IMG/VR virus record: IMGVR_UViG_3300044652_000025
Location: 32,001 to 96,000 of that record
Origin: a virus
Lineage: Duplodnaviria > Caudoviricetes
Reading direction: 5' to 3' (one strand)
Length of the DNA: 64,000 nucleotides
The notes under the pieces are model-generated. The model had not been told where the DNA came from, searched no databases, and worked only from the letters and a program-made list of their open reading frames with translations. Positions 4,746 to 57,762 of the stretch are shown piece after piece. Position 1 is the stretch's first letter. Every line of letters starts with the position of its first letter. The translations under genes and the position numbers were made by a program.

Positions 4746-5552
4746 TCACACCTTCTTATAGTCGGGAGACCAAACCCCGTCTTCACTGCGCTTGAAATCG
4801 ACCATGAGGGCTGGGGCTTCCTCGGTCATGATGTGGGCCACCTTGTCGAAGACGAGGCGGATCTCCTCCTCGGCCCCGGCGTCGGTGCGCTGCTGGATGA
4901 TCCAGCGGATGGCCCGGATGTTAAAGGTAGCCAGGATCGAGGTTGCGACACCGTCGGGGGCGAAGCGCCGCATGAAGCTGGTCTTGGCCTTCTTCTCGTG
5001 GAAGGGTACCCCAGGCTCGTCGAGGCCGAAGTGCCCGGCCATCCACTGCTGGTGGTCCTCCATCAGCCGCAGGAGGTGTTCGGAGCGGCTCACCAGCTGC
5101 TCATCCTCCAGCGCCCAGTCCGGGAACCAGAAGGGGATGTCGGTAAGGCGCACGAATCTCATTGACTCTTGCGAATACGCGCAGCCCGCTCTATGACGAA
5201 TCAACTCATGCGTTAGAACTCTGGACACATCCTGGAACACGAAGCTGTAGTTGGCGTGCTCCACCACACTGCCGTGGAGGGACCGCAGGATGTTCTCCAG
5301 GTAGTCGTCGTGGTCCTCCCGGACCTTGGTGACGTTGGGGTTGAGGCCGGGCTCCCAGGAGCGGTAGCAGAGCCGTCCCCCAAACTCGGTGAGGTACTCC
5401 CCCGCCCGCCCGTCGATGTCGTGGTCGTCGCCATAGGCCCGGAGCCGGTCCATCCAGGCGTTGCCCCGGATGTCGGTCAGGTACTGGTCCACCGCCACCC
5501 AGTCGATCTGGGGCTTGGCGATGAGCCGGACCTTGGGGTGGACGCGCTTCAT
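4746..5552 (-). CDS. thyX: FAD-dependent thymidylate synthase ThyX
   Basis: HGSVVEH, THELIRHR-x-SQESMRF ThyX motif, AEEEIR; start at ATGA overlap 5552. Confidence 0.95.
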   Translation of the reverse strand: MKRVHPKVRLIAKPQIDWVAVDQYLTDIRGNAWMDRLRAYGDDHDIDGRAGEYLTEFGGRLCYRSWEPGLNPNVTKVREDHDDYLENILRSLHGSVVEHANYSFVFQDVSRVLTHELIRHRAGCAYSQESMRFVRLTDIPFWFPDWALEDEQLVSRSEHLLRLMEDHQQWMAGHFGLDEPGVPFHEKKAKTSFMRRFAPDGVATSILATFNIRAIRWIIQQRTDAGAEEEIRLVFDKVAHIMTEEAPALMVDFKRSEDGVWSPDYKKV

Positions 5553-5815
5553 TCGATCGGCTCCAAGTAGTCGCAACGGTCGAGGCTGCGGCGGGCGCCG
5601 CGCCGGGTGATCCCGAACCCGCAGCGGGTCATCTGGGGGCCGAGACTGGTGATCTTCCACTCGGTGACGTCCCACCGGAAGAGCGGCGCGATCGGGCTCT
5701 GGCCGCGGCGCTCGATGATGAACGACGACCCGGCCGGACGCTTCAGGGCCTGGCGGTACGCCTCGTCATAGGGCGGCTGGACCAGATCGCCCCGGATCCT
5801 GACGACCGCTGTCAC
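5549..5815 (-). CDS. hypothetical protein, 88 aa
   Basis: ORF track; 4-bp overlaps on both sides. Confidence 0.65.
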   Translation of the reverse strand: MTAVVRIRGDLVQPPYDEAYRQALKRPAGSSFIIERRGQSPIAPLFRWDVTEWKITSLGPQMTRCGFGITRRGARRSLDRCDYLEPIE

Positions 5816-10636: not shown

Positions 10637-11047
10637 ATGTTCGAGTTCCGCTTCTGGTCGAAAGTGCTGATCGGGGACGGGTGCTGGATTTGGACGGCCT
10701 CGCTCGACGGCAAGGGGTACGGGCAGTATTGGCGAGGCGACAGGAAAGTCATCGCCTCACGCCACGCCTACGAGATTTGGTGCGGGCCGTTGTCCTCCGG
10801 CGTACAGGTACTCCACCGATGTGACACGCCAGCTTGTGTGCGCCCGGACCACCTCTTCGAGGGCAGCCAGCGCGACAACGCGCAGGACTGCGTTGAGAAA
10901 GGACGGCACTACCTCACCCAGCGGACTCATTGCCCGGACGGCCATGAGTACGACGAGGAGAATACCTACTGGTACGGCACCAGACGGCGATGCCGGAAGT
11001 GTCTGGCGAAACACCAGCGAGCGAGCTACCGACGACGCCATAGCTAA
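10637..11047 (+). CDS. HNH homing endonuclease
   Basis: RFWSKV..CWIW, GYG, VLHRCDTPACVRPDHL...DN, C-terminal THCPDGHEY..CRKC Zn finger. Confidence 0.92.
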   Translation: MFEFRFWSKVLIGDGCWIWTASLDGKGYGQYWRGDRKVIASRHAYEIWCGPLSSGVQVLHRCDTPACVRPDHLFEGSQRDNAQDCVEKGRHYLTQRTHCPDGHEYDEENTYWYGTRRRCRKCLAKHQRASYRRRHS

Positions 11048-25993: not shown

Positions 25994-26701
25994 TTATCGG
26001 GCAAAGATGAGGAGCACCTCCGCCTCGGCCCGGGACTCGTGGTTGGCACCGCGCCTCATCCTGGGGGTGACGATCTCGTGGCGGGCGATGAGCGTGAAGC
26101 CGATCGACTCGCAGATCGATCGATGGGTCTCGACGACGGGCTCTCTCCGGCGCTGACCGCGGTGGGTCCGGTAGCAGTCGCTGACGTTGAGGACGAACGT
26201 CCCCGACCGGGTGAGGGGATCGTAGGGCCGCAGTACCCGATAGACCTCCTGCCAGGCGGCGTCGTGGAAGCGCCAGTAGGCGGGCTGCCAGCAGTAGAGG
26301 GTGCCGCTGTTGGCGGGATCCAGGAGCCGGGTCTCGTCGCCGGTCATCCGCCGGAGGTCGTGGGTGTAGCTCCGGCGGTGGGAGCCGTCCTTGGCCATGT
26401 GGGAGTCGGACATCCTGTTGCCGAACACCGGGCTCACCATGACCGCGTCGATGCTCTCGTCCTCGAAGGGGAGGGCCAGGGCGTTGCCCACCCGGGTGTG
26501 GGGGTGACAGGCCGCCCACTCCGGCTCGATCTCGATACCGATGGTCTCCCGCCCGGCCTGGGCCAGGTCATGGACGCGTCCGATGCCCGCCATGGGGTCG
26601 AGGACGACGCCGGTGTCGGGGAGGATCTGGTGGTTCGCGATGAAGCGGAGGATGGCCTGGCTGTACGGCGCCGGGTGGATGGGCTTGGTGGCGGTCGTCA
26701 T
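25994..26701 (-). CDS. SAM-dependent DNA amino-methyltransferase-like protein
   Basis: VLDPMAGIG, GIEIE, GNALALPF, SPVF in place of SPPY. Confidence 0.75.
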   Translation of the reverse strand: MTTATKPIHPAPYSQAILRFIANHQILPDTGVVLDPMAGIGRVHDLAQAGRETIGIEIEPEWAACHPHTRVGNALALPFEDESIDAVMVSPVFGNRMSDSHMAKDGSHRRSYTHDLRRMTGDETRLLDPANSGTLYCWQPAYWRFHDAAWQEVYRVLRPYDPLTRSGTFVLNVSDCYRTHRGQRRREPVVETHRSICESIGFTLIARHEIVTPRMRRGANHESRAEAEVLLIFAR

Positions 26702-28719
26702 CGTCTCCTCCGGGCCGGTGACGTCGGCATCCCGGGCCTGCGCCTGCCCTTGCCGAAGCCCGAGAGGGCATCGTGGGTCTCGGTCTGCTGGCCACTGTGG
26801 GGCAGGCCACCCTGGGCGGTCCCTCCCACCGGTAGCTCGGCCAGGGTCTTGCCCAGGAAGGCCGCGATCTCGGTGCCGATGAGTTCGTAGGTGCAGATGG
26901 CCAGGCAGTCACTCACGTCTTTCGTTTGTACCGGTCCTGAGGTGGGGTGGTCAACCTTGTTTGTTCCCGCCTCCTGGAGGAAGGTCAACTCCAGGTCCGC
27001 CAGTTCGTGATACGGAGCATGGACGAGTCCCAATCCCAAGGCCGTTTTAAATGTTTCATACGTCTTCCAGTTCAAAGGACCAGTAGCGTCCCGCTCGTAG
27101 ATGGTAACCCGCTTCGGGTAGTTAGCGCTACGGGCGTGCTTACGGAGACGCTGGATCAAAGCCACAGAGTTCCACTGGTCGAAGGACAATTCGTTCGGCA
27201 TGAAGGCGTCCATGTCGACGATGATGTCGTCGGCGATGGCGTCGTAGTCGATCTCGTGGTTCTCGTAGTCACCCGGCAGCCAGGCGTGGATCTTGTCGAA
27301 GACGACGTGCGGGAGACCGCGGTCGTCGTGCCCGGCGACGTGGGCGATGGCCCAGCCGAAGTTGGCGCCGCTCTTGGACGGGTCGCCGTGGGCTCGGTAG
27401 GTCCGACTCAGGATCCCTTGGTGCTGCATCGTCAGGACGTCGCTCTCGGTCGGCCAGGGCTTCCACATGTCAGCGATCCGGTCCGGCCGGAGGTACGCGT
27501 CCAAGACGCTGGCCCAATGAGCGCGCCGCTCGACGGCGAACGTTTCAGGATTGGCAGCTTCTAACCGCTGCATCTCGGCGTCGAAGGTCTGGACCGCGTT
27601 GCGCAGGGCCGGGAAGAAGATCGGCCGCGACACCTGGGGGACGGCGTCGCGGATGTGGGCCGGGGGTGGGATCACCCGCTCCGGCCGGGCCTCCAGCCGG
27701 TGGTGAGGATCCGCGGTGCGCTCCCAGTCAACGTAGGTGTCCCAGCTTGCCAACTGGGCCATGAAGAGGGCCGGGAAGCTCGGCTTGCCGTCCTCATCGT
27801 GCTGGAGCGCCTTGCTGTAGTTGTCGAAGAACGCCCCCAGCCGCTGCCACGGCGACGACGCCTCCCACAGGAAGCCCCACTGCTGGAACTGGTCGAGGGA
27901 CGGGACGGCCGACTCGTAGACCTCGCTGGCGTCGGCCTTGGCCACGGCCCGGACGACGTGCGCCATCTCATCGAAGAACAACATCGCGCTGGCCGGGCCT
28001 CGGGCGGCCATCGTCGTTGCCTCTCTGGCCTCGATGATGAAGGTGGCCATGTCGGCCTCGGTCCCGATGCCTCGGTCGTGGCGGTCGAGCATCCTGATGA
28101 AGTCGTGCGGGGCGTAGACGGTGAAGCTCTCCCCCAGGACCCGGCTGATGTAGGGAGCGAAGCACGGCGCCCCGACGATGACGTTGTTCAAGTCCTTCCA
28201 CTGATGCGCTCGGGCCTGCTCCCGCTTACCGGCGAAGGCCATGGTGGCGATCTGCTTGTCGCGGTCGATTCCGAAGTGACCTTGCGGGTCTCCGAGCGAC
28301 AGGTAGTTCCACAAGACGTACGACCCGGCCAGGGCACCGAGGTAGCCCTTGCCGCCACGTCGACCGATGGGCAGGACCACCTCTCTGAACCACTTCCGGC
28401 CCTCGGCCTTGTTGATCTCGATCCGCTCGAAAATGTCAACAACGAGACCGTTGTTGCCCTCGCCCCGTTCGTCAGCCGACTCCCGGAACTTCGTCGTCCA
28501 TTCGTCAACGACCTCGTAGTCGTAGTCGGTCAGCAGGTCGTCACGAAGGAAAATCAACTTCAACAATGTGGCTTGCCTCGGGTACAGCGTCCGGCCCAAA
28601 TATGCGTCCGAGAGAATGAACTCAATCGGGTCCGGGACCTGAGCCTCAAATCCCGCGACGAGTTCAAAGACCCGCAGGGGGTCGAGGTCGGGCATGAATC
28701 GTCGGGTCCTGGCGGGCAT
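26698..28719 (-). CDS. terL: terminase large subunit
   Basis: YPRQ, GRRGGKG Walker A, LFFDE Walker B, HGDP / FDQWN / KDVSD RNaseH-type nuclease residues. Confidence 0.88.
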   Translation of the reverse strand: MPARTRRFMPDLDPLRVFELVAGFEAQVPDPIEFILSDAYLGRTLYPRQATLLKLIFLRDDLLTDYDYEVVDEWTTKFRESADERGEGNNGLVVDIFERIEINKAEGRKWFREVVLPIGRRGGKGYLGALAGSYVLWNYLSLGDPQGHFGIDRDKQIATMAFAGKREQARAHQWKDLNNVIVGAPCFAPYISRVLGESFTVYAPHDFIRMLDRHDRGIGTEADMATFIIEAREATTMAARGPASAMLFFDEMAHVVRAVAKADASEVYESAVPSLDQFQQWGFLWEASSPWQRLGAFFDNYSKALQHDEDGKPSFPALFMAQLASWDTYVDWERTADPHHRLEARPERVIPPPAHIRDAVPQVSRPIFFPALRNAVQTFDAEMQRLEAANPETFAVERRAHWASVLDAYLRPDRIADMWKPWPTESDVLTMQHQGILSRTYRAHGDPSKSGANFGWAIAHVAGHDDRGLPHVVFDKIHAWLPGDYENHEIDYDAIADDIIVDMDAFMPNELSFDQWNSVALIQRLRKHARSANYPKRVTIYERDATGPLNWKTYETFKTALGLGLVHAPYHELADLELTFLQEAGTNKVDHPTSGPVQTKDVSDCLAICTYELIGTEIAAFLGKTLAELPVGGTAQGGLPHSGQQTETHDALSGFGKGRRRPGMPTSPARRRR

Positions 28720-28778: not shown

Positions 28779-29333
28779 ACTGCCATGCCGAACTCGAACC
28801 TGACGAGCATCGCCGCGCCAAGCCCCGCCGACCCACGCCTTGACTGCCGAGTCGAGACCAGCCTACGCCCGCCTAACCGCGGCGAACCCAGCCCTGACTG
28901 CCGAGCCATTCCACGTCCAGACACGCCGTGCCATGACTGCCGCGGCACGACCCGCCTCTCCTAGCCTACGCGTGCCTCACCTCTCCGAGGCTGCCGGGCC
29001 AGGCCCAACCATCGCTGGTCAAGCCCAGCCAAGCCGCACCCTGACTGCCTCGCCCTAACGGGCCATGCCTGTCCATGCACCTCCTCAACGGGCCGTACCT
29101 TGCCACTGCTGCCAGGCCAACGCCTGCCGTGATGTACCAAGCCCTGCCGAGACGAGACCGTCCCCTCCACACCGCTACTGCCCTGACCTACCGGGCCTAG
29201 CCTCTACACGCCCGTCCTAGCCATTGCTGGCGAGCCGAGCCGAACCGCTCCATGACCTTGCGCACTTGCCCTGCCATACCAAGACTGCCGAGCCTTGCCG
29301 CGGCCTGCCTAGCCTCACCAAACCGAGGCTGCC
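28779..29333 (-). ncRNA. guide-RNA array 2: 10 units of GGCA+(GGY-like NN)n
   Basis: Delimiter spacings (+ strand order) 64,54,39,54,54,64,69,49,58,44; 5-nt periodicity; no credible ORF. Confidence 0.85.
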
Positions 29334-29893: not shown

Positions 29894-30929
29894 CCTGCCG
29901 TGACAAGCCAAACCGATCCGGGCCAAGCCCAAACGGGCCTAACCGCGCCAAGCCACGACTGCCGTTACCAACCCGGACCTGCCTGGCCGAACCTGACCGG
30001 GACGAGCCTTGCCTGGACTGGCGAGGCTTGCCGGGCCGTAACACGACTAGACCGGCCTATCCCTGCCCTGACTGCCATGCCTAAACCTGCCCTGGCTTGC
30101 CATGACGACCTAGCCCTACCACTGCTGCCGTGACCAGCCTGGCCGGTCCACGACGCTCCTAGCCGAGCCGTACCTTGCCTCGTCTGCCACGCCCTGCGAA
30201 GCCATCGCTTGCCCATCCTGACCATGGCTGCCGAGCCGGGACCGTCCCAAGCCGGGCACACCTAGCCACTCCATGACTGCCAAACCGGGACCTGCCTGGC
30301 CTGGACACACCTGGCCGAGCCGACCCGCACCTTGCCACTGCTGCCATGACGAACCGCTCCATGCCGTTGCGTGCCGCGACCTGCCAAGCCTTGGCGAGGC
30401 TGCCGAGACCTGACTGGCGACGCCAAGCCGGGCCTGGACATCCCGCGCAACGCCCTGACTCGACTGCCCTGCCAAACCCATCCGGGCCGTGACATGCCAC
30501 CCGAGCCGTGCCTGGGCTGCCGTGCCGCACCTGACCTCGACGGGACCAGACCATCCTGGCCCAGCCAAGCGCAGACCCGCCTCGACTGCCCTACCTCGCC
30601 AAGCCCTGCCTCGGCCCGACCCGGAGATCCAGGCCGAGGCTGGCTGGCCACACCGTGCCTCGACGCTGCGAGACATGCACCGCCTAGCCCATCCTCTACT
30701 GCCATGACCGGCCATGCGTTGCCACGGCGAGCCTTGGCCGGACCGGACCTGACGATCCAAGCCCAACCATGGCTGCCGCTCCACTGCTGCCCTGACAAGC
30801 CTTGGCTCGACGTGCCCCTGCGGGAGTCGCCGGGCCAAGCCACTGCTGCCATGCCGTGACCCGCCATGACATACCGGGGCGCACACCGCCCATACATGAC
30901 CGGGCGAGCCGAGCCATGCCGTGTCTGCC
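29894..30929 (-). ncRNA. guide-RNA array 1: 18 units of GGCA+(GGY-like NN)n
   Basis: Delimiter spacings (+ strand order) 64,59,54,53,59,44,49,64,59,64,53,69,54,59,74,14,59,79. Confidence 0.88.
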
Positions 30930-42222: not shown

Positions 42223-42987
42223 TCATGCCGAAAGTCCCGCACCCATGGGACAGACCAGCCTGGCAGGGCAGGCCTGCGATTCCTTGGAGCCCGGACCGCA
42301 GCACGGCAGCGGCGGGACGAGGTCGGCGGCGGCCTGACGGACCCGGAGGTACTTCTCCCGGACAGCATGGGCGAAGTAGTCGTCGGCGTTGAGGACGATC
42401 TCCCGCATCTCGTAGGGCCAGTCGAGGGACAGCAGGAGCGTCCGGTGGCGCCGATAGCCCGAGAGTCGCATGTACTCCTGGGCCTGGGCGACGTAGACCG
42501 GCTGGAAGAGCCGGTACCACTCGGCCAACTCCGGATCCTCCGGAGAGAGCCGCGGCACCTTGGCCACCTTGGCGGGGCGCATCGTCTTGAACTCGAAGAC
42601 CTCGTCGGAGAGCGTGCCGTCCATGTGGCCGCGGGCGCCGGTCTCCTTGTCCTCGACGGCGACCTCGGTTCCGGTAAAGAGCCCACAGTCGGTGCCGACC
42701 TTCTCGATGAAGCTGTGCCAGAACTTCCCCTGGGTGACAGCCATGACGCCGTGGGGATCGAAGTCCTCGCCGACGAGACGCTCAGGCTCGGTGAGGTACC
42801 AGTAGAGCATCCGCTCTTCCCAGAGCGGGTGGGTGGAGGGGTGGAAGTAGCCGTCCGGCGGCCGGGCCTGGAAGCCCCCGACCTTGACCTGGAACGACTT
42901 GAAGCTGGGGTCGAAGAGAGCGGCCCGGATCACCGGGATGACGACCTCTCCTTTGTCGACCGCCGACAGCACCTTCCTGAAGTTCAC
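42223..42987 (-). CDS. Cas4/RecB-like PD-(D/E)xK exonuclease
   Basis: HPS, GKFWH, GHMDG, EFKT, QAQEY, C-terminal Cys cluster. Confidence 0.8.
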   Translation of the reverse strand: MNFRKVLSAVDKGEVVIPVIRAALFDPSFKSFQVKVGGFQARPPDGYFHPSTHPLWEERMLYWYLTEPERLVGEDFDPHGVMAVTQGKFWHSFIEKVGTDCGLFTGTEVAVEDKETGARGHMDGTLSDEVFEFKTMRPAKVAKVPRLSPEDPELAEWYRLFQPVYVAQAQEYMRLSGYRRHRTLLLSLDWPYEMREIVLNADDYFAHAVREKYLRVRQAAADLVPPLPCCGPGSKESQACPARLVCPMGAGLSA

Positions 42988-43442
42988 GGAATGCCGGGCT
43001 CTGGGAGACAGGGGGATCCACCTGGATCCTTTCCCTGGCCGTAGAACAACTCGTGGGCTCGCCTGTATGCGGCGAGTTCCTCGGTGAGGGTCTCGATCGT
43101 GTCGAGCATTTCCTGGAGGTCGGCCATCTCGATGACCACCAGATCGGGATCCACCTCGGTCAACCGGTCGTTGCGGTAGAAGCGGATCGGGATACAGGGG
43201 CGTTCGCCACCGGCCTGATGGACCGCCTTGGCCCACATCCGTCGGCCCACCCCGATGCTCTCGCCGCGGGTGGCCTTACAGTCCCAAGCAAATGCAATTG
43301 CGGTTGATTCGCAATAACGATCTTGGCGCCCATCCATGGGACCGTTCCACTGGTTGCCGGAGCCGCGACTCTGGCGGCCCCCGAGACGGTCGGTGACATC
43401 AGCCTCATGGTGCTTGCTCATAGCCCGGTTGAGGTCAGCCAT
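42984..43442 (-). CDS. PD-(D/E)xK nuclease, Hjc-like resolvase
   Basis: HE...GSGNQW..DG...DCKAT. Confidence 0.7.
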   Translation of the reverse strand: MADLNRAMSKHHEADVTDRLGGRQSRGSGNQWNGPMDGRQDRYCESTAIAFAWDCKATRGESIGVGRRMWAKAVHQAGGERPCIPIRFYRNDRLTEVDPDLVVIEMADLQEMLDTIETLTEELAAYRRAHELFYGQGKDPGGSPCLPEPGIP

Positions 43443-43769
43443 CGCACGCGGTCCCGTCGGACTGTCGCCACCAGTGGACCCGGTACATGCCGTCCCAGTA
43501 CATGAACTTCCAGTGCCAGCCAAGGATCTTGCCCTGGCGAACCCGGATCGTCGTTCGCACAGGATCGGCGTCCCGTAGCGGCTGGTCCGTCATTTGGCAC
43601 ACCCTTGCCGTAGGAACCAAGCTCGTAGGCCGCCCACCGTTTTGCGGCTCACGGATTTCCCGCATCGGCACATGCCGTACCACCCGGACTTGGGTCCGTA
43701 ATACGTCGCCCAGATGGCATGGTCGCCCGCGACAGTATCGGCGACCTGTCGCTCAGGCATGGACGACCC

Positions 43770-44054
43770 TCATGTGCTCGAAGAGCCGTCGCTGGAGGAC
43801 GGCAAAGACGATGGGCTCCCGGCCTCGGAGGACGGCCGACCACTCGCACTGCTGACATCCGATGCGTGCGCCCCGAACGGGCGGCCCTCCAGGACGTCGC
43901 GCGCCGACATCAGATAGCCCTGGGCTTCCTGAAGCATGGACCGGGCGTGCTCCCCATCCATCAGCGTGGTCCGGTCGTGATCCCGTTTTGCCACCTCCAG
44001 CATGTTCGAGCAGGCCGACAGCACCTGCTCGGCCGTCGTAAGGATGCCGCTCAC
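43770..44054 (-). CDS. hypothetical protein
   Basis: GTGA overlap with recA. Confidence 0.55.
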   Translation of the reverse strand: MSGILTTAEQVLSACSNMLEVAKRDHDRTTLMDGEHARSMLQEAQGYLMSARDVLEGRPFGAHASDVSSASGRPSSEAGSPSSLPSSSDGSSST

Positions 44055-45148
44055 GCGATCTCTCCCTCCCGGCCGGTCCGGAACTGCGGTCCCTCCGGGT
44101 CGGGCCGCTCCTCGGCGTAGACCTCCGACGCCCGAGTGGCCAAGACGGCGGTCCGGACGGCGTCGACGGTGTCGGGCTGGGTCCGCATGGCCTCGACCAT
44201 CTTGTCCCGGCCGTTGAACCGCTCGCCGGTGCCCGGCACGGTGTACCAGGCGCCGTCCCGGGAGATGACGCCCAGCTTGAGGCCCAGTGTCACCGCTTCG
44301 TCGACCTTGTCGACCCCGAGCGGACCGTACTTCTCCGTCGACTGGTTGAACAGGGAGATGAAAGCGGCCCGTCCCGGCGGGGCCACGTTGTTGCGCTCCA
44401 GCTTGATGGCCAGTTCGTGGCCGACGAGCACCTTGTTCTCACCGGAGCCGAGCGTGAAGGGCTCCCGGCTGGTCCGCTTGAACTCCATCTTCATGGTGGT
44501 GACGTGCTTGAGGGCGAAGCCGCCGCCGGTGGTGGTGGCCTTGCCGTAGCCGGAGACATTGGCCCGGACCTGGTTGATGACGATGACCGCGGTCCGGGAC
44601 CGGTCGGCCGCCGGGGCGGCCATCTTCACCATGCGGGTGACCACCTTGGCCTGGGCGGCGACCACGGCCTCGTCGGCGTCCTTGTCGATCTCCTTCTGGG
44701 GGATCATCGCCCCGATGGAGTCCAGCACCACCATGGAGAATTGCGGCAGAAGCATGTCCTTCAAGATGTCGGCCGTCTCCTCGGCGACGTCGGGCTGGAT
44801 GATGTAGCACCGCGTCATGTCGACACCGTGGTCCCGGACCCAGGCCAGGTCGATCTTGTGTTCGACGTCGATGTAGCCGACGACCTTGTCGGGATGCTTC
44901 TTCTGGGCCTCGGCCAGCCCAAGGATCGCCATGGTCGACTTCCCGATCCCATCGGCGCCCCAGTACTCGTGGAGGCGGCCCTCCACCAGCCCGCCGACGC
45001 CAGTGGCGTAGTCCAGAGCCAGCGACCCGGTCGAGATCACTTTATAGGGGGTAATCTCCGGCGACTTGATCAGCGCGGCGGCGCCGTATTTCTTTTGAAA
45101 TTTTTCCTCAAACGCTTTGAGGGCTTTGACATCCGGTCGTTCGGCCAT
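44051..45148 (-). CDS. recA: RecA/UvsX recombinase
   Basis: ISTGSLALD, GADGIGKST, YIDVEH, VVLDS, INQVR, TTGGG.ALK. Confidence 0.95.
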   Translation of the reverse strand: MAERPDVKALKAFEEKFQKKYGAAALIKSPEITPYKVISTGSLALDYATGVGGLVEGRLHEYWGADGIGKSTMAILGLAEAQKKHPDKVVGYIDVEHKIDLAWVRDHGVDMTRCYIIQPDVAEETADILKDMLLPQFSMVVLDSIGAMIPQKEIDKDADEAVVAAQAKVVTRMVKMAAPAADRSRTAVIVINQVRANVSGYGKATTTGGGFALKHVTTMKMEFKRTSREPFTLGSGENKVLVGHELAIKLERNNVAPPGRAAFISLFNQSTEKYGPLGVDKVDEAVTLGLKLGVISRDGAWYTVPGTGERFNGRDKMVEAMRTQPDTVDAVRTAVLATRASEVYAEERPDPEGPQFRTGREGEIA

Positions 45149-45166: not shown

Positions 45167-48100
45167 TCAGCATGGCTGGTACTTCTTGAGTTGGCATCCT
45201 CGCTCGTTCTTGGCCAGTAAGGCGAGGGCCATCTCGTTCTGGCGGATATCCCGATGGTACTTCTCCCACGCCTCGTGGAACACGACCACGTCGATGTCGC
45301 CGTCGCGGGCGTAGAGCGTCATGAAGGCCATCTTGCGTCCGTACCTGTCCTGGGTAGGGCGCAGCCGTGACACCACCGCTAGGACGAGGTATTCCCCGTC
45401 GTCTCCGTTGCCGACTTCCTCGGCGGTGTGGCAGTCCTCCAGGATCGAGGGGTGGACGGTGTCGAACGGGGTCGACGAGAGGGCGATCCCGAGTAGCCGC
45501 TCTTCGATGGTCCGGATCTCGGCGTCGCTGTAGCGCGCTCCGACGGCCACACCCTCCCGGGGGGCGTACTGACGGCAGGCCCGAGAGCACTTGGCCGGGA
45601 GACCGGGCTGGTTCTTGAGGGGTCTGCCACTCTTGCCGAGCTTGGGCGGCTCCGTGAACCAGTCGAAGGTGCAGGGCAGCCCGGGGACATCGGCCCACCA
45701 CCGGCAGTCGGCCGAGGGGATCGGTTTGTTGGCCTGGAAGTCGAGATGGTCCACCAGAGCGCGGCGGTTCTCGATGAGCCGGTCGAAGGCTCCGACCTCG
45801 ACCAGGGTCCGGGTGACCCCGGAGTTGGCGGCGCGGCCTTTCCTGGCCAGGTAGTCGTCCCAGGAGGTATAGGGCTGCCCGGCGACGATGTCCTTGACCG
45901 CGGCGTCGCCGATGCCCTTGATCTGGTCGAGCCCGTAGCGGATGCCCCGGGGTGTGACCTTGAAGCCCACCCCGCTCTCGTTGATGTCCGGCGGCAGGAT
46001 CCGCAGCCCCATCCGCCGGGCCTCCTGGATCACCTCCGGGAGACGGCCCTTCTCCTCTGTGGACAATAGTGCGGTGAAGAATTGCAAGGGATAGTGGAAC
46101 TTTAAGTAGGCTGTCCAAACGCCCAAGATTGCATAGGCCCATGCGTGGCTTCTATTGAAACTATATTTTGCAAATTCGGCCAGCTGCTCCCAGAGCGCCG
46201 CCATGGCCTGACGGTCGTGACCGCGTGCGAGACAGCGGGTGATGAACCGCTGGCCCTCCTCGGGTATCCGGCTGGTCTTCTTCTTGCCGAGGATCCGGCG
46301 GACCTCGTCGGCCTCCTCCGAGGTGTAGCCGCCGAGGATCATGCAGGTCTGCATGACCTGCTCTTGGTACAAGATGCAGCCGAACGTGTCGCCGAGGTAG
46401 TGCTCCAGCGACGGATGGGGGTAGGTCACCGGCTCCAGCCCGGCCCGACGCTGGAGGTACATCTTCATCAGCCCGGAGTTCTTGGGGCCGGGTCGGCCGA
46501 TGGTGATGAGGTCGGCCAACTCCCGGAGTGACCGCGGTCTGAACTCCTTGGCGATCTTGGTGTTGGCCTTGGTCTCGATCTGGAAGATGCCGAGGGTGTG
46601 GCCCTTTCCGATCTCCTCCCACATCAACGGATCGTCGTACTCATTTTTCCATGAGTAGACGTCGATCTCGACGCCCTCCTGCTCCCGGATGAGATCGACG
46701 GTCTTCTGGATCGTGTCCAGATTCCGAAGATTCAAAAGATCGAACTTGACCAGACCCAGGGACTCCAGGGCCTCCATGTCGAACTCGGCCACCAGCTGGC
46801 CGTCCTTGGCGGCCCACAGCGGCAGCCGGTCGATGAGCGGCTCGTCGGGGGAGATCACGAACCCGGCGGCGTGACGTCCGTAGGACTTGAGACGGCCCAC
46901 CATCCGGTCGGCGTAGGCGAAGAGCGTGGGGTACTTCTCCCGGTAGGGGTTCAAGGTCTCGGCGTGGGCCTCCCACATCTCGTCCCATGGCATCCCGAGG
47001 CCCGCGGTGCTGGCCTCGATATCGTCGATGTGCTTCGCCACCAGGTCCATGTCGGGGTAGAGCCGGGGGTTGTCGATGGCCTTGTTGAGCACCCTGGTCA
47101 GATCCCGGATGACGCCCTTGTTCTTGAGCCGGAGGTGGGTGCCGACCCGGACGACGCGGTCGGCGCCCCAGCGCTCGACGGCGTAGGCGGCCATCCGGTC
47201 TTTCTCCGAGGACGGATAGTCGACGTCGAAGTCGGGCAGGGCGGCCCGGCCCTCGGTCAGAAAGCGCTCGAAGAGCAGGCCGGTATCGACGGGGTCGATC
47301 TCCGTGATGCCCATGAGGTAGGCGACCAGCGAACCCGACCCCGAGCCCCGGCCCGGCCCCACCAGGATCCGGTTGCGCTTGGCGTAGTCGACCTGGTCGT
47401 GGACCATCAGGTAGTAGCCGCAGAACCCCTTGTCGATGAGGAGCTTCATCTCCCGCTCGAAGCGGGCCTCGTAGACCTCCTGGCCGCTGCTCTTACCCAG
47501 CGTCTTGGCCCAGTTGCCGAGGCAGATCCGCAGCAGCCGGTCGACATCGGCCGCCGGACCACCACTGCGCGAGAACACCGGCGGGTCGGCCCGTCCGACC
47601 ATGGAGGCGGTGCAGCGCTCGGCCACGGCGACGGTATTGGCCATGGCCTCGTCGATCACCGCGGCCGGGAGGTAGCCGAGGGCTTTGGTGACTTCACCGG
47701 CGGTCATCAGGTGGTAGTCGTGACCGCCGGAGAACAATCCGGTGTCCTCGGCGATGCCGTCCTTCTTGGGGATCTGGACAGCCAGCCAGGTGGCGTGGGC
47801 GTCCTTGTCGTCGGGACAGGCATAGTGGCTGTCCACCGCGGCCACCAGGGGCAGAGAGTACTGGCGGGCCAGATCGACCAGGAGGTCGTTGACCTTGCGC
47901 TGCTCGTCAAGGGCGTTGGTGTGGATCTCCACATAGAGTCGGTCCCGGAAGATGTCGTTCAGCCGGGCGAGGTTGGCCACCGCCAGGTCGTAGGCTTCGT
48001 GCTTGAGCAAGGGGTGGGCCAGCGGGCCGCGGAGGCAGGCAGTGGAGGCAATGACGCCGTCGCTGAGCCGCGACAGGGTGTCCCAGTCCATCCGAGGCTT

Positions 48101-48727
48101 GCCGTAGAAGCCATCACGGTAAGCCTCGGTGCTCATGGCCCAGAGGTTGCGGAGTCCGGCGTCGGTCTCGGCCAGCAGGATCAGGTGGTAGTAGTCGAGG
48201 CTCTCCCGGTCGAAGCGGTCGTGGACGAGATAGGCCTCGATCCCGAAGAGGGGCTTGATCCCGGCCTTGGCCGCCTTGGCCGCCAGGTGAGGGTGAGCGG
48301 CGCAGGCACCGTGGTCGGTGACGGCCAGGGCGGGCTGTCCGTCGGCCACCACCGCGGCGATCATCTCGTCGATGGTCGAGTAGCCGTCCAGGGCCGAGTG
48401 TTCGCTGTGGGCGTGGAGGTGAACGAAGCCGGTCGTCCGTTCGGCCTTGGCCGCCCGGCGTAGCTGCCGGTAGGACGGCGTCGGATGCGGGCAGGGCCGG
48501 AGGTCAGGGATCTCCACCTCGGCCCCACCGAAACGCGACGGCGGGTCGCCGTCCACCAGCCAGTAGCTGTCGCCGACGATGACCGCGGCGATCGAGTGGT
48601 TCATGGCGTTGTCGTAGACCCAGGACGGGAACCGCGCCTCGGGGACGAGGAGCATCCGGATGCCGTCATCATCCTCGACGACCGTGACCCCCGGGAAGTA
48701 CTCCTCTGCTATTCGATATTGGCCCAC
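45167..48727 (-). CDS. dnaE: DNA polymerase III alpha subunit
   Basis: PHP FVHLHAHSEHS, GRGSGSGSLVAY, PDFDVD, KFDLL, ILYQEQ, FNRSH, C-terminal OB fold. Confidence 0.97.
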   Translation of the reverse strand: MGQYRIAEEYFPGVTVVEDDDGIRMLLVPEARFPSWVYDNAMNHSIAAVIVGDSYWLVDGDPPSRFGGAEVEIPDLRPCPHPTPSYRQLRRAAKAERTTGFVHLHAHSEHSALDGYSTIDEMIAAVVADGQPALAVTDHGACAAHPHLAAKAAKAGIKPLFGIEAYLVHDRFDRESLDYYHLILLAETDAGLRNLWAMSTEAYRDGFYGKPRMDWDTLSRLSDGVIASTACLRGPLAHPLLKHEAYDLAVANLARLNDIFRDRLYVEIHTNALDEQRKVNDLLVDLARQYSLPLVAAVDSHYACPDDKDAHATWLAVQIPKKDGIAEDTGLFSGGHDYHLMTAGEVTKALGYLPAAVIDEAMANTVAVAERCTASMVGRADPPVFSRSGGPAADVDRLLRICLGNWAKTLGKSSGQEVYEARFEREMKLLIDKGFCGYYLMVHDQVDYAKRNRILVGPGRGSGSGSLVAYLMGITEIDPVDTGLLFERFLTEGRAALPDFDVDYPSSEKDRMAAYAVERWGADRVVRVGTHLRLKNKGVIRDLTRVLNKAIDNPRLYPDMDLVAKHIDDIEASTAGLGMPWDEMWEAHAETLNPYREKYPTLFAYADRMVGRLKSYGRHAAGFVISPDEPLIDRLPLWAAKDGQLVAEFDMEALESLGLVKFDLLNLRNLDTIQKTVDLIREQEGVEIDVYSWKNEYDDPLMWEEIGKGHTLGIFQIETKANTKIAKEFRPRSLRELADLITIGRPGPKNSGLMKMYLQRRAGLEPVTYPHPSLEHYLGDTFGCILYQEQVMQTCMILGGYTSEEADEVRRILGKKKTSRIPEEGQRFITRCLARGHDRQAMAALWEQLAEFAKYSFNRSHAWAYAILGVWTAYLKFHYPLQFFTALLSTEEKGRLPEVIQEARRMGLRILPPDINESGVGFKVTPRGIRYGLDQIKGIGDAAVKDIVAGQPYTSWDDYLARKGRAANSGVTRTLVEVGAFDRLIENRRALVDHLDFQANKPIPSADCRWWADVPGLPCTFDWFTEPPKLGKSGRPLKNQPGLPAKCSRACRQYAPREGVAVGARYSDAEIRTIEERLLGIALSSTPFDTVHPSILEDCHTAEEVGNGDDGEYLVLAVVSRLRPTQDRYGRKMAFMTLYARDGDIDVVVFHEAWEKYHRDIRQNEMALALLAKNERGCQLKKYQPC

Positions 48728-53228: not shown

Positions 53229-53441
53229 TCAGCCCCCTCGCTCCCGGTCGTGGGTCAAGGCCGCCTGCATGGCATTGGCGAACCAGCTGATCATGAGACT
53301 CTGGTCGACCACACCCGCCGGGCCGTCATTCTCGTTGACCACGGTCCAGCCATCGAAAGTCCGACAGAACTCCTCAGCCCAGATCACGACGTCTGTCGTC
53401 GAATGGAGCTTGCGGGCGACCGAGTCGGGCTGGTCAGTCAT
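53229..53441 (-). CDS. hypothetical protein (WAEEF / WFANAM motif)
   Basis: ORF track; ATGA overlap. Confidence 0.7.
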   Translation of the reverse strand: MTDQPDSVARKLHSTTDVVIWAEEFCRTFDGWTVVNENDGPAGVVDQSLMISWFANAMQAALTHDRERGG

Positions 53442-55453
53442 CGGAGTTCCGTCGGCCGGGGCATCTCACACACATCGTTGCTACAGAAACGATCGCCCTC
53501 GGGATCGACTCCATTCTGGTAGATGGGAGCCCACTCGATGCGTCTTACACCCTGGGTCGCCACCTCGAAGGCATCGGCGGTGATGGCCTCGTAGGGCATC
53601 TGGGGATAGGCCCCACCGTCATGCATGGGCAGAAAGGACATCGTCTTCAGCTGGCCGTCGAAGGCGTGGAGCAGCGGCCCGATCTGGTCCTTCTCATGGG
53701 CCTGGAAAGTGAAGGTGGCGCTGACCATGTTGTCGGCCCAGTGGTTCTGGAGAGTGGCCGCCAGGGCCACCTTCTCCCAGACGACGACCTCGCGGGTCGA
53801 ACGCACCTGCGGACCCATGGTGGGGAAGCTGACGACCACGGAGTTGGTGTCGGCCACGTCGGGCTCGACCCAGTAGCCCGCCTCCTCGAAGACCTGGACC
53901 ATCGGGTCGGCCTGCCGGAAGCGCATCCGGCGGATGTACGTGTCGTGCTCCGGCCAGTGGGCGCCGGGGGTGACCCCGGCCAGCAGGCTCACCGTACCGG
54001 AGGGCTTGACCGACGTCTTCTTGATGGACTCCCGGACCCCGAGCCACTCGGAGTACTGCCGGTCGCGGCGAGTGATCTCGGCGTAGCCCATGTCCAGCCA
54101 GTCCCGGAGCTTCGTCCAGCCGTGGCGCTCCACGAACTGGGCGACCCCCGACACCGAGCAGCCGATGCGCCGGTTGCGGGTCATGACCTCATTGGACTCC
54201 GGCCAGTGGGTACTCATGAGGGTCACGGCCTTGCCGTAGAGGTAGGCGCACTTGAGCGTCCGCAGGAAGTCCTCGACGGTGTCGTGGTGGATCGGGTACG
54301 TCTCGACCAGGGTGCAGAGTTCGTTGTCCTCCAGGGTCTGCTCGGCGCATGGGTTGCAGCCCTTGGCCCGGTAGTCCCGGTTGTTGGGCGGGTCACCCAG
54401 ACGGCCGTGGGAGCGCATGAGGTCGAGGTACACCAGCCCCGGCTCGCCGTTGACGGCGATCTGCTCCACAAGGTCGTCGTAGTTACCGCCGACCTCGGCC
54501 TGGATGGAGTTGTTCGACATCCAGCCCCAGCCGTCGTGACCCATCCGGTCCGCGTTCACCGCCGGGTCCTTGAGGAGGAGGAACGCCTTGTCGTCGGGCT
54601 GGCCGAGAGCAAGCTCGGCGCTCCGGCGGACGTTCCCGGCCACCACGCAGCGGCCGATGAGGTTCATGATGTCCACGATGTCGGTCGACGTGATCGGCTG
54701 GCCGCCGCGGTCGGCCAGGAGACCCCGGAGGCTGCCGTGGAGCTTCCGGAGTGGACCTGGTCCGGCCGCGGTGCCCCCGAAGCGCTTGATGGGCTCCCCG
54801 GCCGGGCGGATCTCGTCATAGAGGAAACGGACGGAGCGCTGGCCGGGGAGGAGGTAGGACCGCAGCAGCCGATCGACGGAGTCGCACCAGCCCTCTCGGC
54901 TGTCGTGGATCATGACCTCATCGAAGGCGCTCTGGGGGTGGTGGATGGTCAGCCGTCCGGCGCCCAGGGTGTCGAAGCCGACGCCGACGCCCAGCATGGA
55001 CATCTCCATCAGCCGGGCGAAAGGCAGGGCGGGGTTACGCGGTCCCAGGCTCTCGGTGCTCAAAAAGGCGCAATTCTGAAGGGCAGCTGAACCTTCCTCC
55101 CAGACGAAGGGCACGCCCATCATCCAGATGCCTCGGCCGGGCGGGGTCCACTTGAAGGTGAACATCCGCTCGTACATCTCCTCGGCGGCCCGGTGGGCCT
55201 TGGGGTGGTACCACGGCGTCCGCTGGCGCTGGCAGTGGTCCTTGAGGATCGAGTAGGTCCCCTCGACGACGCGGCGGCAGGCTTCGTGCCAGCGCTCCTT
55301 GGTGCCGTCGGGCTTGACCCGGGAGTACTTGGTCAGGAACGTAAGCTCCCCGAGGGAGTTACCACCGCCGCAGTCGAAGCCCCAGGGGACGGGCCGGTCG
55401 ACGTAGGTCGCCACGAACTCGTCGGCCAGTCTGAAGCTCAGATGGTCAGTCAC
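53438..55453 (-). CDS. nrdJ: class II (B12-dependent) ribonucleotide reductase
   Basis: KYSR, PPGRG, ALQNC, GNVRRSA, NPCAEQ..ELCTL, VKPSGT, C-terminal CSNDVC. Confidence 0.95.
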   Translation of the reverse strand: MTDHLSFRLADEFVATYVDRPVPWGFDCGGGNSLGELTFLTKYSRVKPDGTKERWHEACRRVVEGTYSILKDHCQRQRTPWYHPKAHRAAEEMYERMFTFKWTPPGRGIWMMGVPFVWEEGSAALQNCAFLSTESLGPRNPALPFARLMEMSMLGVGVGFDTLGAGRLTIHHPQSAFDEVMIHDSREGWCDSVDRLLRSYLLPGQRSVRFLYDEIRPAGEPIKRFGGTAAGPGPLRKLHGSLRGLLADRGGQPITSTDIVDIMNLIGRCVVAGNVRRSAELALGQPDDKAFLLLKDPAVNADRMGHDGWGWMSNNSIQAEVGGNYDDLVEQIAVNGEPGLVYLDLMRSHGRLGDPPNNRDYRAKGCNPCAEQTLEDNELCTLVETYPIHHDTVEDFLRTLKCAYLYGKAVTLMSTHWPESNEVMTRNRRIGCSVSGVAQFVERHGWTKLRDWLDMGYAEITRRDRQYSEWLGVRESIKKTSVKPSGTVSLLAGVTPGAHWPEHDTYIRRMRFRQADPMVQVFEEAGYWVEPDVADTNSVVVSFPTMGPQVRSTREVVVWEKVALAATLQNHWADNMVSATFTFQAHEKDQIGPLLHAFDGQLKTMSFLPMHDGGAYPQMPYEAITADAFEVATQGVRRIEWAPIYQNGVDPEGDRFCSNDVCEMPRPTELR

Positions 55454-57762
55454 GATCCTCCCAGTTGGGTCTCGCCCCGGACGATGAAGTGAGCACTCTC
55501 AACTTCCCAGATCATCGAAAAATGTTTGAAGTCTTCCCGGCGGGCGGCGAGGGTATGGAACAGCGCCTGCGGTGGTATGGCGGCGCGCTGATCCATCGAC
55601 TGGTAGAGACCGAACACCCAGTCAGCCCCTCGCTCCACTCCGGCGGAATCAGCCAGGTCGCTCATCTCGTAGTAGCCGCGTCGGAAGGCGGCTTTCACCC
55701 CTTCTCGGTTGATCTGGTGAGCGAGCAGGCAGGGTATGCGGCGACGGCCGGTGCCAATGAGGTCACTGAGCGTCCGGATCGAGTCCGAGATCTGGAGGTC
55801 GTAGCGCAGCTTCGGGTTCTCGTGGACGACGTGGCTCAGCTGGTCGATCAGCAGGCTCTCGGTGTCGCGGACCTGGGCGTCCCGGACGAGAGCGGCGACG
55901 CGGCGCTTCTCGATCGGAGGGTGCAACACATGGAATGGCGCCCCGGCACCCGGCAGATCATTGATCCATGACCTGACACGGTCGACCTCGACGTCGGAGC
56001 ACGTCCCGCACTGCCAGCCGCGGTAGGACACCCCAGTCGCCAGGCAGGCGATCCGGTCGAGGGTCATCTCGACCGAGTTCTCCAGGGTGTAGAGCGTCAC
56101 GCACTTGCCCCGCTCCCACTCCCGGAGGGCGACGAGGTCGAGGAAGAAGCTGTTGTGCGTGACAAGGAAGTCCTCTGTCACATAGAGGCCATCTGCCGCC
56201 GCGACTTGGATGCAGACGGTATCTCCCCGTCCTGCCGGAGTGACCTCCACGATGCGCCTAGAAGGACGGCGGGCACGCAAGCTCGGACGCTCGTCGTAAT
56301 CCCGGCGCTTTCGCGGAAGACGGAATGGGCACTCAGGCAATCTCAGTCTGATGATCCAGGCCGGACGCCCGGCGCCGCCTTGATGCGATGGCTCCGGCTT
56401 GTACTTGACCCGGGCCGTGCCCCCCAGAGAGAGCACAAGTTCCCTCACGGCCAAAGCCAACCGCTCCGAAGTGGAGCAGAAGGTGATGCCCTTGCCATCC
56501 ACACCGCCCTCGGTGTCCAGCAGGCCGGAAAGGAGTTGACGACGCTCGTTGATAGTGGCCCGCAGGTACCGATCAGGGATGAACTTCTCCCAGGACCGGC
56601 ATCCCATGAGGCCCATCTCCCGAAGTGCCGCCGTGGTCCGGCCTCCGACGATGGATGCCAATCCACGGCGCTCCTTGATCCAATGCCGCTCGTCACCCTG
56701 GGGAAGCAGCCGGTCGATCTCACCATGAAGCCATGGCTCCGGCTTACAAAAGGTCGGCGTACAGACCGTCAGCGAACCGTCTCCGAGCAACAGCCCGAGC
56801 AAGTAGGGATGGAGCGGGAGCGGACCGAGATCCTCATAGCGCACCGGGGCCACCATGGGCAGGTAGGCGAAGCGCCGATTGGTCTGGATCTTTCGGGCCA
56901 GCGTCTCGGTGTCCACCGTCTGCACCTTCCCGCCGTGACTGTGGGGATGCACCGTCCAATCATGAGCGACATCGACCACCACCGACCCGCCGTCGTCGGT
57001 CGTCACCCTCATGAGGGGACGATCCGACCATCTCCGCATGGCGATGACGGCCGTGGCGCGACCATCACTTCCGATCACCGCGTCCCCGGGCCGGAGCGAG
57101 CCGATCTGACGCCATCCTCCAGGCGTGAGTACCAGACTGGTCACCGCCTCGGCCTTCCCCACCTTCGGCCCGGCGGCCAGGACGGCAAGCTCCCCCGGCT
57201 TGATGCCGTTGGTGTAGGCGTCGATCGGGGTGAGCCCGAAGGTCATGCCCTCGATGACACCGCGGTTGGCGGCGCGGGCGTCGTAGCTCCGCATCCTGTC
57301 GGCCAGCGCTTCCCGGGCGTCGACGGCGTCATCCTTACGGGTGACCTTCATGGCCAGTGTGACCAGCTGGTCGGCGGCTTCGGAGACCACGGCCGGGCGC
57401 TCCTCGAACGTCGCCTCACGCACCGACATGGCGAACTGCCGGTTGAAGTGGTCGGCCTCCTTGATGAGGTAGGTGCCCTTCAGATCCTGGAGCGCCCACT
57501 CGATGGAGTCGTCGGGCTCCTCGTCGATGTCGATCTCGGCGTCGTTGAGGGCGTCGGCGTAGATCGGCTCGGCCAGGAAGGCGGCGACGGATGGGGCCTT
57601 GGTCTGGCCGCTCTGGTGCCAATAGTCGACCGCGAAGGCCACCAGGGGACGGAGGGCCTCGTCGGGGACGATCTCGGGCTCCAGCCCCTGACGGGCGATG
57701 ACCGCCACCGAGTCGGCGTCGGTCAGATGCTTGATGAGGCAGGCCAGCCCGGCGGCGCTCAT
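55450..57762 (-). CDS. dnaB: DnaB-like replicative helicase containing an intein
   Basis: GIKPGELAVLAAGPKVGK|S split P-loop, TLEN, LLIDQL, HQINR, LADS..VER.AD. Confidence 0.9.
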   Translation of the reverse strand: MSAAGLACLIKHLTDADSVAVIARQGLEPEIVPDEALRPLVAFAVDYWHQSGQTKAPSVAAFLAEPIYADALNDAEIDIDEEPDDSIEWALQDLKGTYLIKEADHFNRQFAMSVREATFEERPAVVSEAADQLVTLAMKVTRKDDAVDAREALADRMRSYDARAANRGVIEGMTFGLTPIDAYTNGIKPGELAVLAAGPKVGKAEAVTSLVLTPGGWRQIGSLRPGDAVIGSDGRATAVIAMRRWSDRPLMRVTTDDGGSVVVDVAHDWTVHPHSHGGKVQTVDTETLARKIQTNRRFAYLPMVAPVRYEDLGPLPLHPYLLGLLLGDGSLTVCTPTFCKPEPWLHGEIDRLLPQGDERHWIKERRGLASIVGGRTTAALREMGLMGCRSWEKFIPDRYLRATINERRQLLSGLLDTEGGVDGKGITFCSTSERLALAVRELVLSLGGTARVKYKPEPSHQGGAGRPAWIIRLRLPECPFRLPRKRRDYDERPSLRARRPSRRIVEVTPAGRGDTVCIQVAAADGLYVTEDFLVTHNSFFLDLVALREWERGKCVTLYTLENSVEMTLDRIACLATGVSYRGWQCGTCSDVEVDRVRSWINDLPGAGAPFHVLHPPIEKRRVAALVRDAQVRDTESLLIDQLSHVVHENPKLRYDLQISDSIRTLSDLIGTGRRRIPCLLAHQINREGVKAAFRRGYYEMSDLADSAGVERGADWVFGLYQSMDQRAAIPPQALFHTLAARREDFKHFSMIWEVESAHFIVRGETQLGGS
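56152..57153 (-). mobile_element. class 3 intein with LAGLIDADG homing endonuclease, 334 aa
   Basis: Starts Ala (AEAVTSLVLTPGGW), HDW, TVCIQV, ends VTHN|S; LLGLLLGDG and LSGLLDTEG. Confidence 0.92.

Follow-up and report, generated by a model that had tools for sequence, protein, structure and literature searches.

The 64,000-nucleotide window analyzed here comprises bases 32001 to 96000 of a 151,490-bp phage contig from IMG/VR with a G+C content of 66% and carries nearly all of its genes on the minus strand, including thyX, terL, recA, dnaE, nrdJ and dnaB (Table 1). The identities of thyX, recA, dnaE, nrdJ and dnaB are backed by Pfam; the terminase and the polymerase are about 30% identical to their counterparts in cluster-C mycobacteriophages and Gordonia/Rhodococcus myophages, and the closest phage homologs of thyX, at 57% amino-acid identity, are found in Streptomyces phages. 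Third codon positions are about 88% G/C genome-wide (such codons are denoted GC3 below), so that the fraction of codons ending in A or T (AT3) is approximately 0.12. Against this background, several conserved genes contain short patches densely populated by rare codons, and it appears highly probable that the strongest of these patches are tied to homing sites of inteins, which are spread among actinophages in the terminase, ThyX, Pol III alpha, ribonucleotide reductase and helicase genes (PMC5050341; bioRxiv 10.1101/2025.01.02.630785).

Gene models were called by codon statistics and their starts were refined; patches were scored by AT3 in 12-codon windows and afterwards by codon rarity. Intein sites were mapped by collecting homologs and placing their large insertions by global alignment, and each site is designated by the residue of this phage's own protein that precedes the insertion. 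The sequences available for comparison include one distant relative within IMG/VR (G001, about 45% amino-acid identity), a syntenic relative in soil metagenomes represented by two contigs from one sample (L017 and L022, 55-79% identity), and two near-identical strains, also from soil metagenomes (L023 and L030).

Every rare-codon patch listed in the original prediction, which was made from this DNA alone, is present at its coordinates on the minus strand. The clustering of rare codons exceeds that obtained by synonymous shuffling within amino acid and gene in thyX, terL, recA, dnaE, nrdJ and several other genes (autocorrelation P < 0.002). Preferred codons in this genome have G or C at the third position, so nearly every synonymous change away from them looks A/T-rich. 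When 14-codon windows are ranked by codon rarity across the genome, the thyX patch comes second and the dnaE patch sixth. At every patch compared, the syntenic relative (L017/L022) and the Streptomyces phages encode the same residues with G/C-ending codons, as is the case for the relatives of thyX at the position of the patch in this phage and for nrdJ of L017. Thus, the patches are specific to this phage lineage.

Table 1. Genes and features of the window discussed in the text (a slash within a motif marks a mapped intein insertion point)
Feature	Position	Strand	Remarks
HNH homing-endonuclease-like gene, free-standing	10637..11047	+	Pfam HNH_3 E=5e-8, zf-His_Me_endon
thyX, flavin-dependent thymidylate synthase, intein-free	4746..5552	-	Pfam Thy1 E=1e-33
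thyX recoded patch, codons 108-130 (DVSRVL/THELIRHR...)	5163..5231	-	12/23 codons AT3, including three AGA and one TTG
terL, large terminase, intein-free	26698..28695	-	30% identity to actinophage terminases
terL patch, codons 581-595 (VDHPTSGPVQTKDVS)	26911..26955	-	7/15 codons AT3; L022 GC3
terL recoded patch, codons 537-564	27004..27087	-	15/28 codons AT3 plus three TTG; contains the site between residues 559 and 560
terL small patch (LEAANPE)	27544..27564	-	6/7 codons AT3, including rare TTA; within the 36-nt array-unit match
terL box-swap patch, codons 38-51 (YPRQATLLKLIFL)	28543..28584	-	AGG, CAA, ACA, three TTG, ATT, CTT
Last array unit	28785..28848	-	Variable dinucleotides match terL
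recA	44051-45148	-	Pfam
recA N-terminal patch, codons 3-20	45089..45142	-	11/18 codons AT3 vs 3/18 in L017
dnaE, DNA polymerase III alpha, intein-free	45167..48727	-	Pfam PHP, DNA_pol3_alpha, finger, HHH_6 domains
dnaE recoded patch, codons 851-880 (EFAKY/SFNRSHAWAYAILGVW/TAYLKFHYP)	46088..46177	-	Spans the sites between residues 855 and 856 and between 871 and 872
dnaE weaker patch, codons 658-669 (GLVKFDLLNLRN)	46721..46756	-	6/12 codons AT3; relatives GC3
nrdJ, class II ribonucleotide reductase, intein-free	53438..55453	-	Pfam RNR_Alpha, RNR-II_ins_dom
nrdJ recoded patch, codons 120-130 (EGSAALQN/CAF)	55064..55096	-	7/11 codons AT3
dnaB	55450-57762	-	Pfam
dnaB C-terminal patch	55492..55536	-	8/15 codons AT3; 40-85 nt before the start codon of nrdJ
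dnaB resident intein, 334 residues, P-loop GK/S	56152..57153	-	Pfam LAGLIDADG_3; boundaries by alignment to intein-free G001 DnaB

In thyX, dnaE and nrdJ, the strongest internal patch falls on an intein site mapped from homologs, and in terL a patch spans one. Among approximately 99 intein-bearing ThyX homologs, the insertion follows residue 113 (SRVL/THELIRHR) in 80, residue 61 in 10 and residue 94 in 7; the first of these sites lies between bases 5214 and 5213, inside the patch, and the top AT3 window of the gene (codons 110-121) sits on it. In dnaE, insertions in 13 intein-bearing homologs follow residues 110, 435, 445, 783, 855 and 871, with site 855 (EFAKY/SFNRSH) used by four homologs and site 871 by one. 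The top window, codons 851-862, is located on site 855 (between bases 46163 and 46162), with AT3 codons at 11 of the 16 positions in 46130-46177, and the patch runs on to about base 46088, over site 871 (between bases 46115 and 46114). The dnaE patch is found unchanged on an independent 8.9-kb soil contig; contigs from three other soil runs lack coverage of 46040-46243 and so carry no weight. A literature search for CFNKSH, the classic DnaE split-intein junction, returned no match, and the site is instead shown from the homologs. In nrdJ, the top window (codons 119-130) is on the site at residues 125-128, which in this phage maps near residues 127 and 128, at about base 55073. Insertions of at least 90 residues, one to three in each protein, are present in 118 of the 150 best NrdJ cluster representatives, the main sites being 368-370 (71), 277 (18) and 125-128 (about 17); the NrdJ family is unusually rich in inteins. 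Inteins of terL homologs follow residues 177, 239, 260, 391, 441, 508 and 559, and the terminase gene of mycobacteriophage Cali has an intein near 291-316. The top terL window, codons 545-556, belongs to a merged patch (codons 537-564), almost identical to L022 in amino acids, that takes in site 559 (between bases 27019 and 27018), which is occupied in one homolog (P0356). The residue that follows the site is Cys, Ser or Thr, as splicing requires, in ThyX (T114), DnaE (S856 and T872) and NrdJ (C128); residue 560 of TerL is Ala, and the intein-bearing homolog has Cys.

The coincidence between patches and intein sites recurs, at different sites, in four further sequences. The top thyX window of L022 (codons 86-97) is on site 94 (AAC ATA CTT TCA TCT CTA CAT GGC/TCG); that of dnaE in L015, a sequence with an intein at 855, covers codons 107-118, on the empty site 110; that of terL in G001 (codons 262-273) lies beside site 260; and thyX of L023 has an altered tract on site 61, considered below. 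Over 17 gene sequences, which are those that could be obtained rather than a designed sample, so that the P values are indicative, the summed maximal standardized AT3 (z) at intein sites is 38.4, compared with 22.1±4.4 for circularly shifted sites (P=2.5e-4) and 18.1±3.6 for conservation-matched windows (P<5e-5).

These comparisons bear on the simplest account of the patches, namely that they are ordinary rare-codon clusters or lapses of codon bias, caused by folding pauses, unstructured mRNA near gene starts or chance, and overlap intein sites only because both favor conserved motifs. This account draws on the presence of 85 patches across the genome under the refined gene models, many of them in genes without known inteins and including tail-fiber repeats and hypothetical genes; on the mild AT3 enrichment of gene termini (0.18-0.19 in the first five and last five codons vs 0.113 in the interior), which may feed the recA and dnaB patches; and on the modest significance of the coincidence in single genes, with P values of 0.03-0.25. 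However, conserved positions are not enriched in AT3, and conservation-matched windows fall below the average and are surpassed in the pooled test. A link between AT3 and conservation is rejected, given that AT3 is 12.1% at residues identical to G001 vs 12.2% at non-identical ones, with no rise with local conservation. The original prediction had taken the patches to be a general mark of conserved motifs in essential genes, a generalization that does not survive these figures and the genome-wide count. Local A/T islands can be dismissed as well: AT3 drops where the neighboring first and second codon positions are richer in A/T (logit coefficient -1.8). Judged by eye only, the hexamer spacing in the dnaE and thyX patches does not suit internal sigma-70-like promoters, and this possibility was set aside.

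Clusters of rare codons have been proposed to slow translation in support of co-translational folding, and their position is reported to be conserved among homologs. The patches resemble such pause clusters in being short rare-codon runs within highly expressed, conserved genes, but differ from them in that they are lineage-specific and shift between intein sites. At the alignment columns where this phage has its patches, GC3 codons are used by the orthologs in L017, L018, L022 and the Streptomyces phages, and relatives that are GC3 here have patches of their own at other intein sites. Moreover, pausing does not predict the kind of substitution that is in excess. Taken with the pooled test, these observations make an explanation without any genetic conflict quite unlikely.

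The substitutions in question are codon-box swaps, that is, synonymous changes that reach the first or second codon position. With the four intein-site patches pooled and compared with the rest of the coding sequence, AGR accounts for 4 of 5 Arg codons in the patches vs 9% elsewhere (p=3.6e-4), and TTR for 7 of 10 Leu codons vs 215 of 3296 (6.5%; p=6e-7). Restricting the comparison to A/T-ending Arg codons, AGA makes up 4 of 5 in the patches and 61 of 497 (12%) elsewhere (p=0.0012). Hence, the box-swap excess beyond what lowered GC3 would produce, which the original prediction had anticipated, is borne out for Arg and Leu and fails for Ser, which shows no excess. Together with the mapping of the strongest patches onto the intein sites of homologs, the enrichment of Arg and Leu swaps lends weight to homing endonucleases, one of the three attackers that had been envisaged, alongside gapped guides and CRISPR.

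We give roughly even odds to the proposition that the strongest internal patches represent empty homing sites whose recoding confers resistance to intein endonucleases and which pass between strains as short conversion tracts. Under this proposal, inteins of related phages, and for thyX also of actinobacterial hosts, would encode endonucleases that recognize 20-40 bp across the empty insertion point. An allele with the common GC3 sequence would be cut and then converted or lost; variants differing at many bases would escape cutting and be favored, with the protein motif kept. Box swaps at Arg, Leu and Ser would carry the differences into codon positions 1 and 2, at times together with a tolerated change of residue, and strains would pass the variants to one another in conversion tracts about 50 bp long and centered on the site. 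The positional coincidence, its recurrence in other genomes, the contrast with the codons of relatives and the box-swap excess are observed; cleavage of the common sequence but not of its recoded form, and an origin of the patches in selection rather than in history, are inferred.

The principal alternative invokes history: an intein from a lower-GC or recoded donor would have co-converted a short flank and later been lost precisely, such that the patches are footprints of past occupancy with no selection for resistance. The positional coincidence fits this scenario equally well. A direct comparison of DNA at an intein-bearing site is provided by dnaE site 855 alone, where two intein-bearing alleles with DNA sequence are at hand. 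In this phage the site reads GAA TTT GCA AAA TAT/AGT TTC AAT AGA, whereas both L015 and L016 have GAG TTC GCC AAG TAC on one side of the intein and TCC TTC AAC CGC on the other, that is, ordinary GC3 flanks unlike the patch. The intein-free L017 (GAG TTC GCC AAG TAC/TCC TTC AAC CGS) reads as L015 and L016 do; the intein-free L018 is GC3 too, with Arg (CGC) for Lys, AGC for Ser and Lys (AAG) for Arg. The allele of this phage differs from that of L015 at 11 of 30 bases while encoding the same amino acids, with two box swaps (TCC to AGT and CGS to AGA); by hand count, the differences between L017 and L015 number about 4 in 30 bases, with a single one among the 24 bases of the eight codons nearest the site.

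Several further observations speak against occupancy in the past. The resident dnaB intein, which still occupies its site, is flanked by ordinary GC3 codons (1/30 and 0/30 AT3 in the exteins). At the near-invariant dnaE columns 870 and 874, the Val and Tyr of this phage are not among the common residues of 119 homologs, intein-bearing ones included, which have Tyr, Phe, His or Leu at the former and Trp or Phe at the latter; the same applies to two residues of L023 thyX described below. Apart from this phage, IMG/VR yields no match to a 26-mer taken from the dnaE patch and searched exactly, although near-identical records could be missed, and a near-identity DNA search with the dnaE region in the phage collection returned a single 53-bp match and no donor. 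Furthermore, a precise loss that keeps 25 bp of foreign flank on both sides would be a rare event, and it would be needed at several genes.

The nature of the exchange is illustrated by thyX of the sister strain L023 (window positions 4746-5552 vs L023:1584-2390). The two genes are identical over codons 1-53 and 71-117, whereas codons 54-70 hold 17 base differences (33% of bases) in a tract of about 50 bp centered on site 61; codons 118-268 differ by about 13%. This mosaic divergence points to frequent short-tract recombination between strains. The changes in the tract include TCC to AGT, CTC to TTG, E67A and G69Q, and their directions are mixed, with G/C exchanges both ways as well as AT-to-GC and GC-to-AT changes, which implies that difference in any direction, rather than decay towards A/T, is at issue. 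Neither A67 nor Q69 is among the common residues of 119-120 homologs, intein-bearing ones included. The original prediction had named recombination accompanied by amino-acid change as an observation that would count against escape from attack, and the L023 tract answers to part of that description, being a piece of about 50 bp with 17 differences and two residue changes between identical flanks. The discreteness of the tract indicates that the patches move as recombination tracts; its centering on an intein site and its residues, which are not among the common ones of 120 homologs, argue for the exchange of site variants and not against conflict.

L023 has, some hundreds of bases ahead of the thyX block, a 119-bp segment (L023:757-875) with 99% identity to positions 43452-43570 of the window. 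This location is about 38 kb away from the one that the segment occupies in this phage, so that a small mobile or duplicated element may be involved.

A number of facts weigh against selection for resistance as the cause of the patches, and some of them fit past occupancy. The L023 tract, with its residue changes, resembles a single imported piece rather than a series of stepwise escape mutations. The intein-bearing bacterial thyX L019 has a somewhat A/T-rich C-extein flank (ACG CAT GAA CTA GTT AGG CAT), with 6 of 12 codons AT3 after the site. The flanks of the dnaE intein at 871 in L031 are somewhat A/T-rich as well (TAT, GTT, TAT/TTG, TTT, AAT), and a TTR Leu codon at column 875 is common to L031 and this phage. 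Most of the mapped sites show no recoding in this phage, including dnaE sites 110, 435, 445 and 783, nrdJ sites 277 and 368-370, the commonest, and six of the terL sites; the terL coincidence is weak when taken alone, since 7-8 sites are set against a 28-codon patch. No tie to inteins is known for many of the 85 patches, such as those in recA, at codons 658-669 of dnaE and at codons 38-51 and 581-595 of terL, along with those in the resolvase-like gene (42984-43442), a protein with a head-protease domain and a giant GNAT protein. Introns, endonucleases of other kinds or unrelated causes may play a part.

In an arms race, inteins would also come to reside in recoded sites, so that the A/T-rich flanks of L019 and L031 and the L023 tract do not cleanly separate resistance from a footprint. 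Within the small sample of donors, no flank matches the tract as a footprint would have it: L015 and L016 are unlike it, and L019 and L031 show a loose resemblance only. Resistance is favored by the contrast at dnaE site 855, the rare residues near the sites, the ordinary flanks of the dnaB intein, the box-swap excess and the mixed directions of change in L023. All considered, we regard a footprint of past occupancy as doubtful, if by no means negligible. One further allele is worth recording: in L031 (L031:2865-2912; dnaE of P0020, with its intein at 871), the empty site 855 has Gly at the +1 position, not Ser, Cys or Thr, and AGG for a nearby Arg; at the protein level, this may bar a second invasion. 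As a test case, terL of L030 was uninformative, with 79 scattered base differences, no tract at a mapped intein site and both 3' patches identical.

A wholly different source of conflict was suggested by a non-coding array located upstream of terL, between it and a gene of 212 residues (28779-29333 and 29894-30929). The array has a 5-nt period consisting of two variable bases and a semi-constant GGC-like triplet, and the original prediction had envisaged gapped guides of this kind, reading codon positions 1 and 2, as attackers that could have left such scars. Conceivably, the units read positions 1 and 2 of conserved motifs in rivals, and the phage box-swaps its own copies to avoid targeting itself. 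In frame, 21 of the 24 variable bases of the last unit agree with positions 1 and 2 of terL codons 375-386 (27538-27573). No other match in the genome scores as high, and none of 300 order-shuffles attains 21; one of the mismatches is the rare TTA against CTN. The LEAANPE patch lies inside this match, and intein site 391 of terL is seven codons downstream of the patch. For the first unit, the sister strain's homolog of the adjacent gene (30955-31593) offers an in-frame match at 22 of 24 bases, compared with 20 of 24 for the copy in this phage. However, a crude all-offset scan for matches of at least 21/24 yields 39 with the real array and 36 with the reversed one, mostly in low-complexity GC strings, and none of them on the thyX, dnaE or nrdJ patches. 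Moreover, changes at third positions, which form the bulk of each patch, are irrelevant to such a code, and no mechanism is known that pairs a 5-nt guide with a 3-nt target. As a general cause, then, gapped guides are not sustained, accounting at most for one small terL patch, for which the array may matter; the main patches are not explained by it, and we consider immunity from self-targeting very unlikely as their origin.

The remaining patches are of several kinds. The box-swap patch of terL corresponds to CGC, CAG, ACG, CTC/CTG, ATC and CTC codons in L022, and no intein was found at its position among 120 homologs; nor does any of the mapped terL intein sites fall in codons 581-595. None of the 13 intein-bearing dnaE homologs has an intein at codons 658-669, and a gene split as the cause of this patch is rejected because the dnaE splits of actinophages lie elsewhere, near residue 400-415 in this phage's numbering, where Wollypog, Anakin, ChewyVIII and Send513 have the break in the non-conserved stretch that links the PHP domain to the polymerase domain. 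Several actinophages (L024, which is Arthrobacter phage Wollypog, L025, L026 and L027) share one such PHP/polymerase split linker, and in Wollypog a gene for an HNH endonuclease lies between the dnaE halves. General AT3 enrichment at gene starts may contribute to the N-terminal patch of recA, which is nevertheless much stronger than its counterpart in L017. The C-terminal patch of dnaB probably belongs to the translation-initiation region of nrdJ, and the AT3 enrichment at gene ends may contribute to it. The third rarest codon window of the genome is found at codons 39-52 (RQDRYCESTAIAFA) of the gene at 42984-43442, which encodes a Holliday-junction-resolvase-like protein (PHROG 2002). As for mobile elements in the window, the HNH_3 gene is encoded on the strand opposite to almost all other genes. 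The dnaB intein has an AT3 of 0.26 vs 0.07 in the N-extein; it starts with Ala, ends with HN, contains a LAGLIDADG domain and a VCI block, and may be class 3-like. This intein is absent from the relatives L017 and G001.

The evasion of homing endonucleases by target change has precedents. One case is the yeast WHO/FBA1 system (Coughlan et al., 2020, PMC7282813; Osborne, Monnin and Wolfe, 2026, bioRxiv 10.64898/2026.08.13.744650), in which positive selection acts on the target of the homing endonuclease to evade cleavage and resistance resulted from 33% of the single synonymous changes (bioRxiv 10.64898/2026.08.13.744650). The parallels comprise a LAGLIDADG-type endonuclease, a conserved coding target that evolves fast, synonymous resistance and spread by gene conversion. 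There, however, the WHO element lies beside the gene and carries a resistant copy of its 3' half, and cleavage was assayed; in this phage, the empty intein sites lie inside four genes with no element attached and are known from sequence alone. At the haloarchaeal MCM-d site, an empty allele with proline at the +1 position is resistant to invasion (PMC10643990). That resistance acts at the protein level, through a residue that prevents splicing, whereas the recoding observed here is a matter of DNA, dense and for the most part synonymous, and extends over 10-30 codons. With the homing cycle of inteins in general, the present case shares the variation of empty sites between lineages, some variants of which block invasion. 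Degenerate VDE targets are likewise known in yeast.

In the T-even phages, marker exclusion and intronless homing are carried out by the free-standing endonucleases SegF, SegG and MobE, and the insert in gene 60 protects against MobA. As in those phages, a conserved gene of a competitor would be cut, nearby markers co-converted and the producer's own copy protected by sequence differences. Unlike the T-even arrangement, in which the endonuclease gene adjoins its target, none adjoins thyX, dnaE, nrdJ or terL, and the sole free-standing HNH gene is the one at 10637-11047. We found no report in the literature of dense synonymous recoding at empty intein sites of phages. Thus, the principle of target evasion is already established elsewhere, and the recoding at phage intein sites is the new part.

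Extending the argument, we tentatively envisage, as a possibility rather than a probability, that high-GC phages are engaged in a multi-gene arms race with intein endonucleases, those of host thyX inteins included, in which empty homing sites are recoded time and again, largely by synonymous changes with box swaps among them, and resistant cassettes of about 50 bp are traded by short-patch conversion, with the pentamer array maybe acting as a second, unrelated reader of codon positions 1 and 2 in conserved motifs. If so, patches of rare codons in a GC-rich genome would provide a readout, from sequence only, of the endonucleases that a lineage has recently faced, and would serve as a cheap marker for endonuclease targets. 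Surveys of inteins usually score presence or absence, and homing models treat empty sites as susceptible or, rarely, resistant; should empty phage sites be routinely recoded, intein dynamics would include resistance as a major state that has gone uncounted to date. Naturally resistant variants would show which target positions matter and could be useful for tools based on inteins and homing endonucleases. If recoding is routine, furthermore, phages with homologous genes could meet an unintended form of restriction in the intein endonucleases of their hosts, and synonymous sites in the most conserved motifs would not be neutral.

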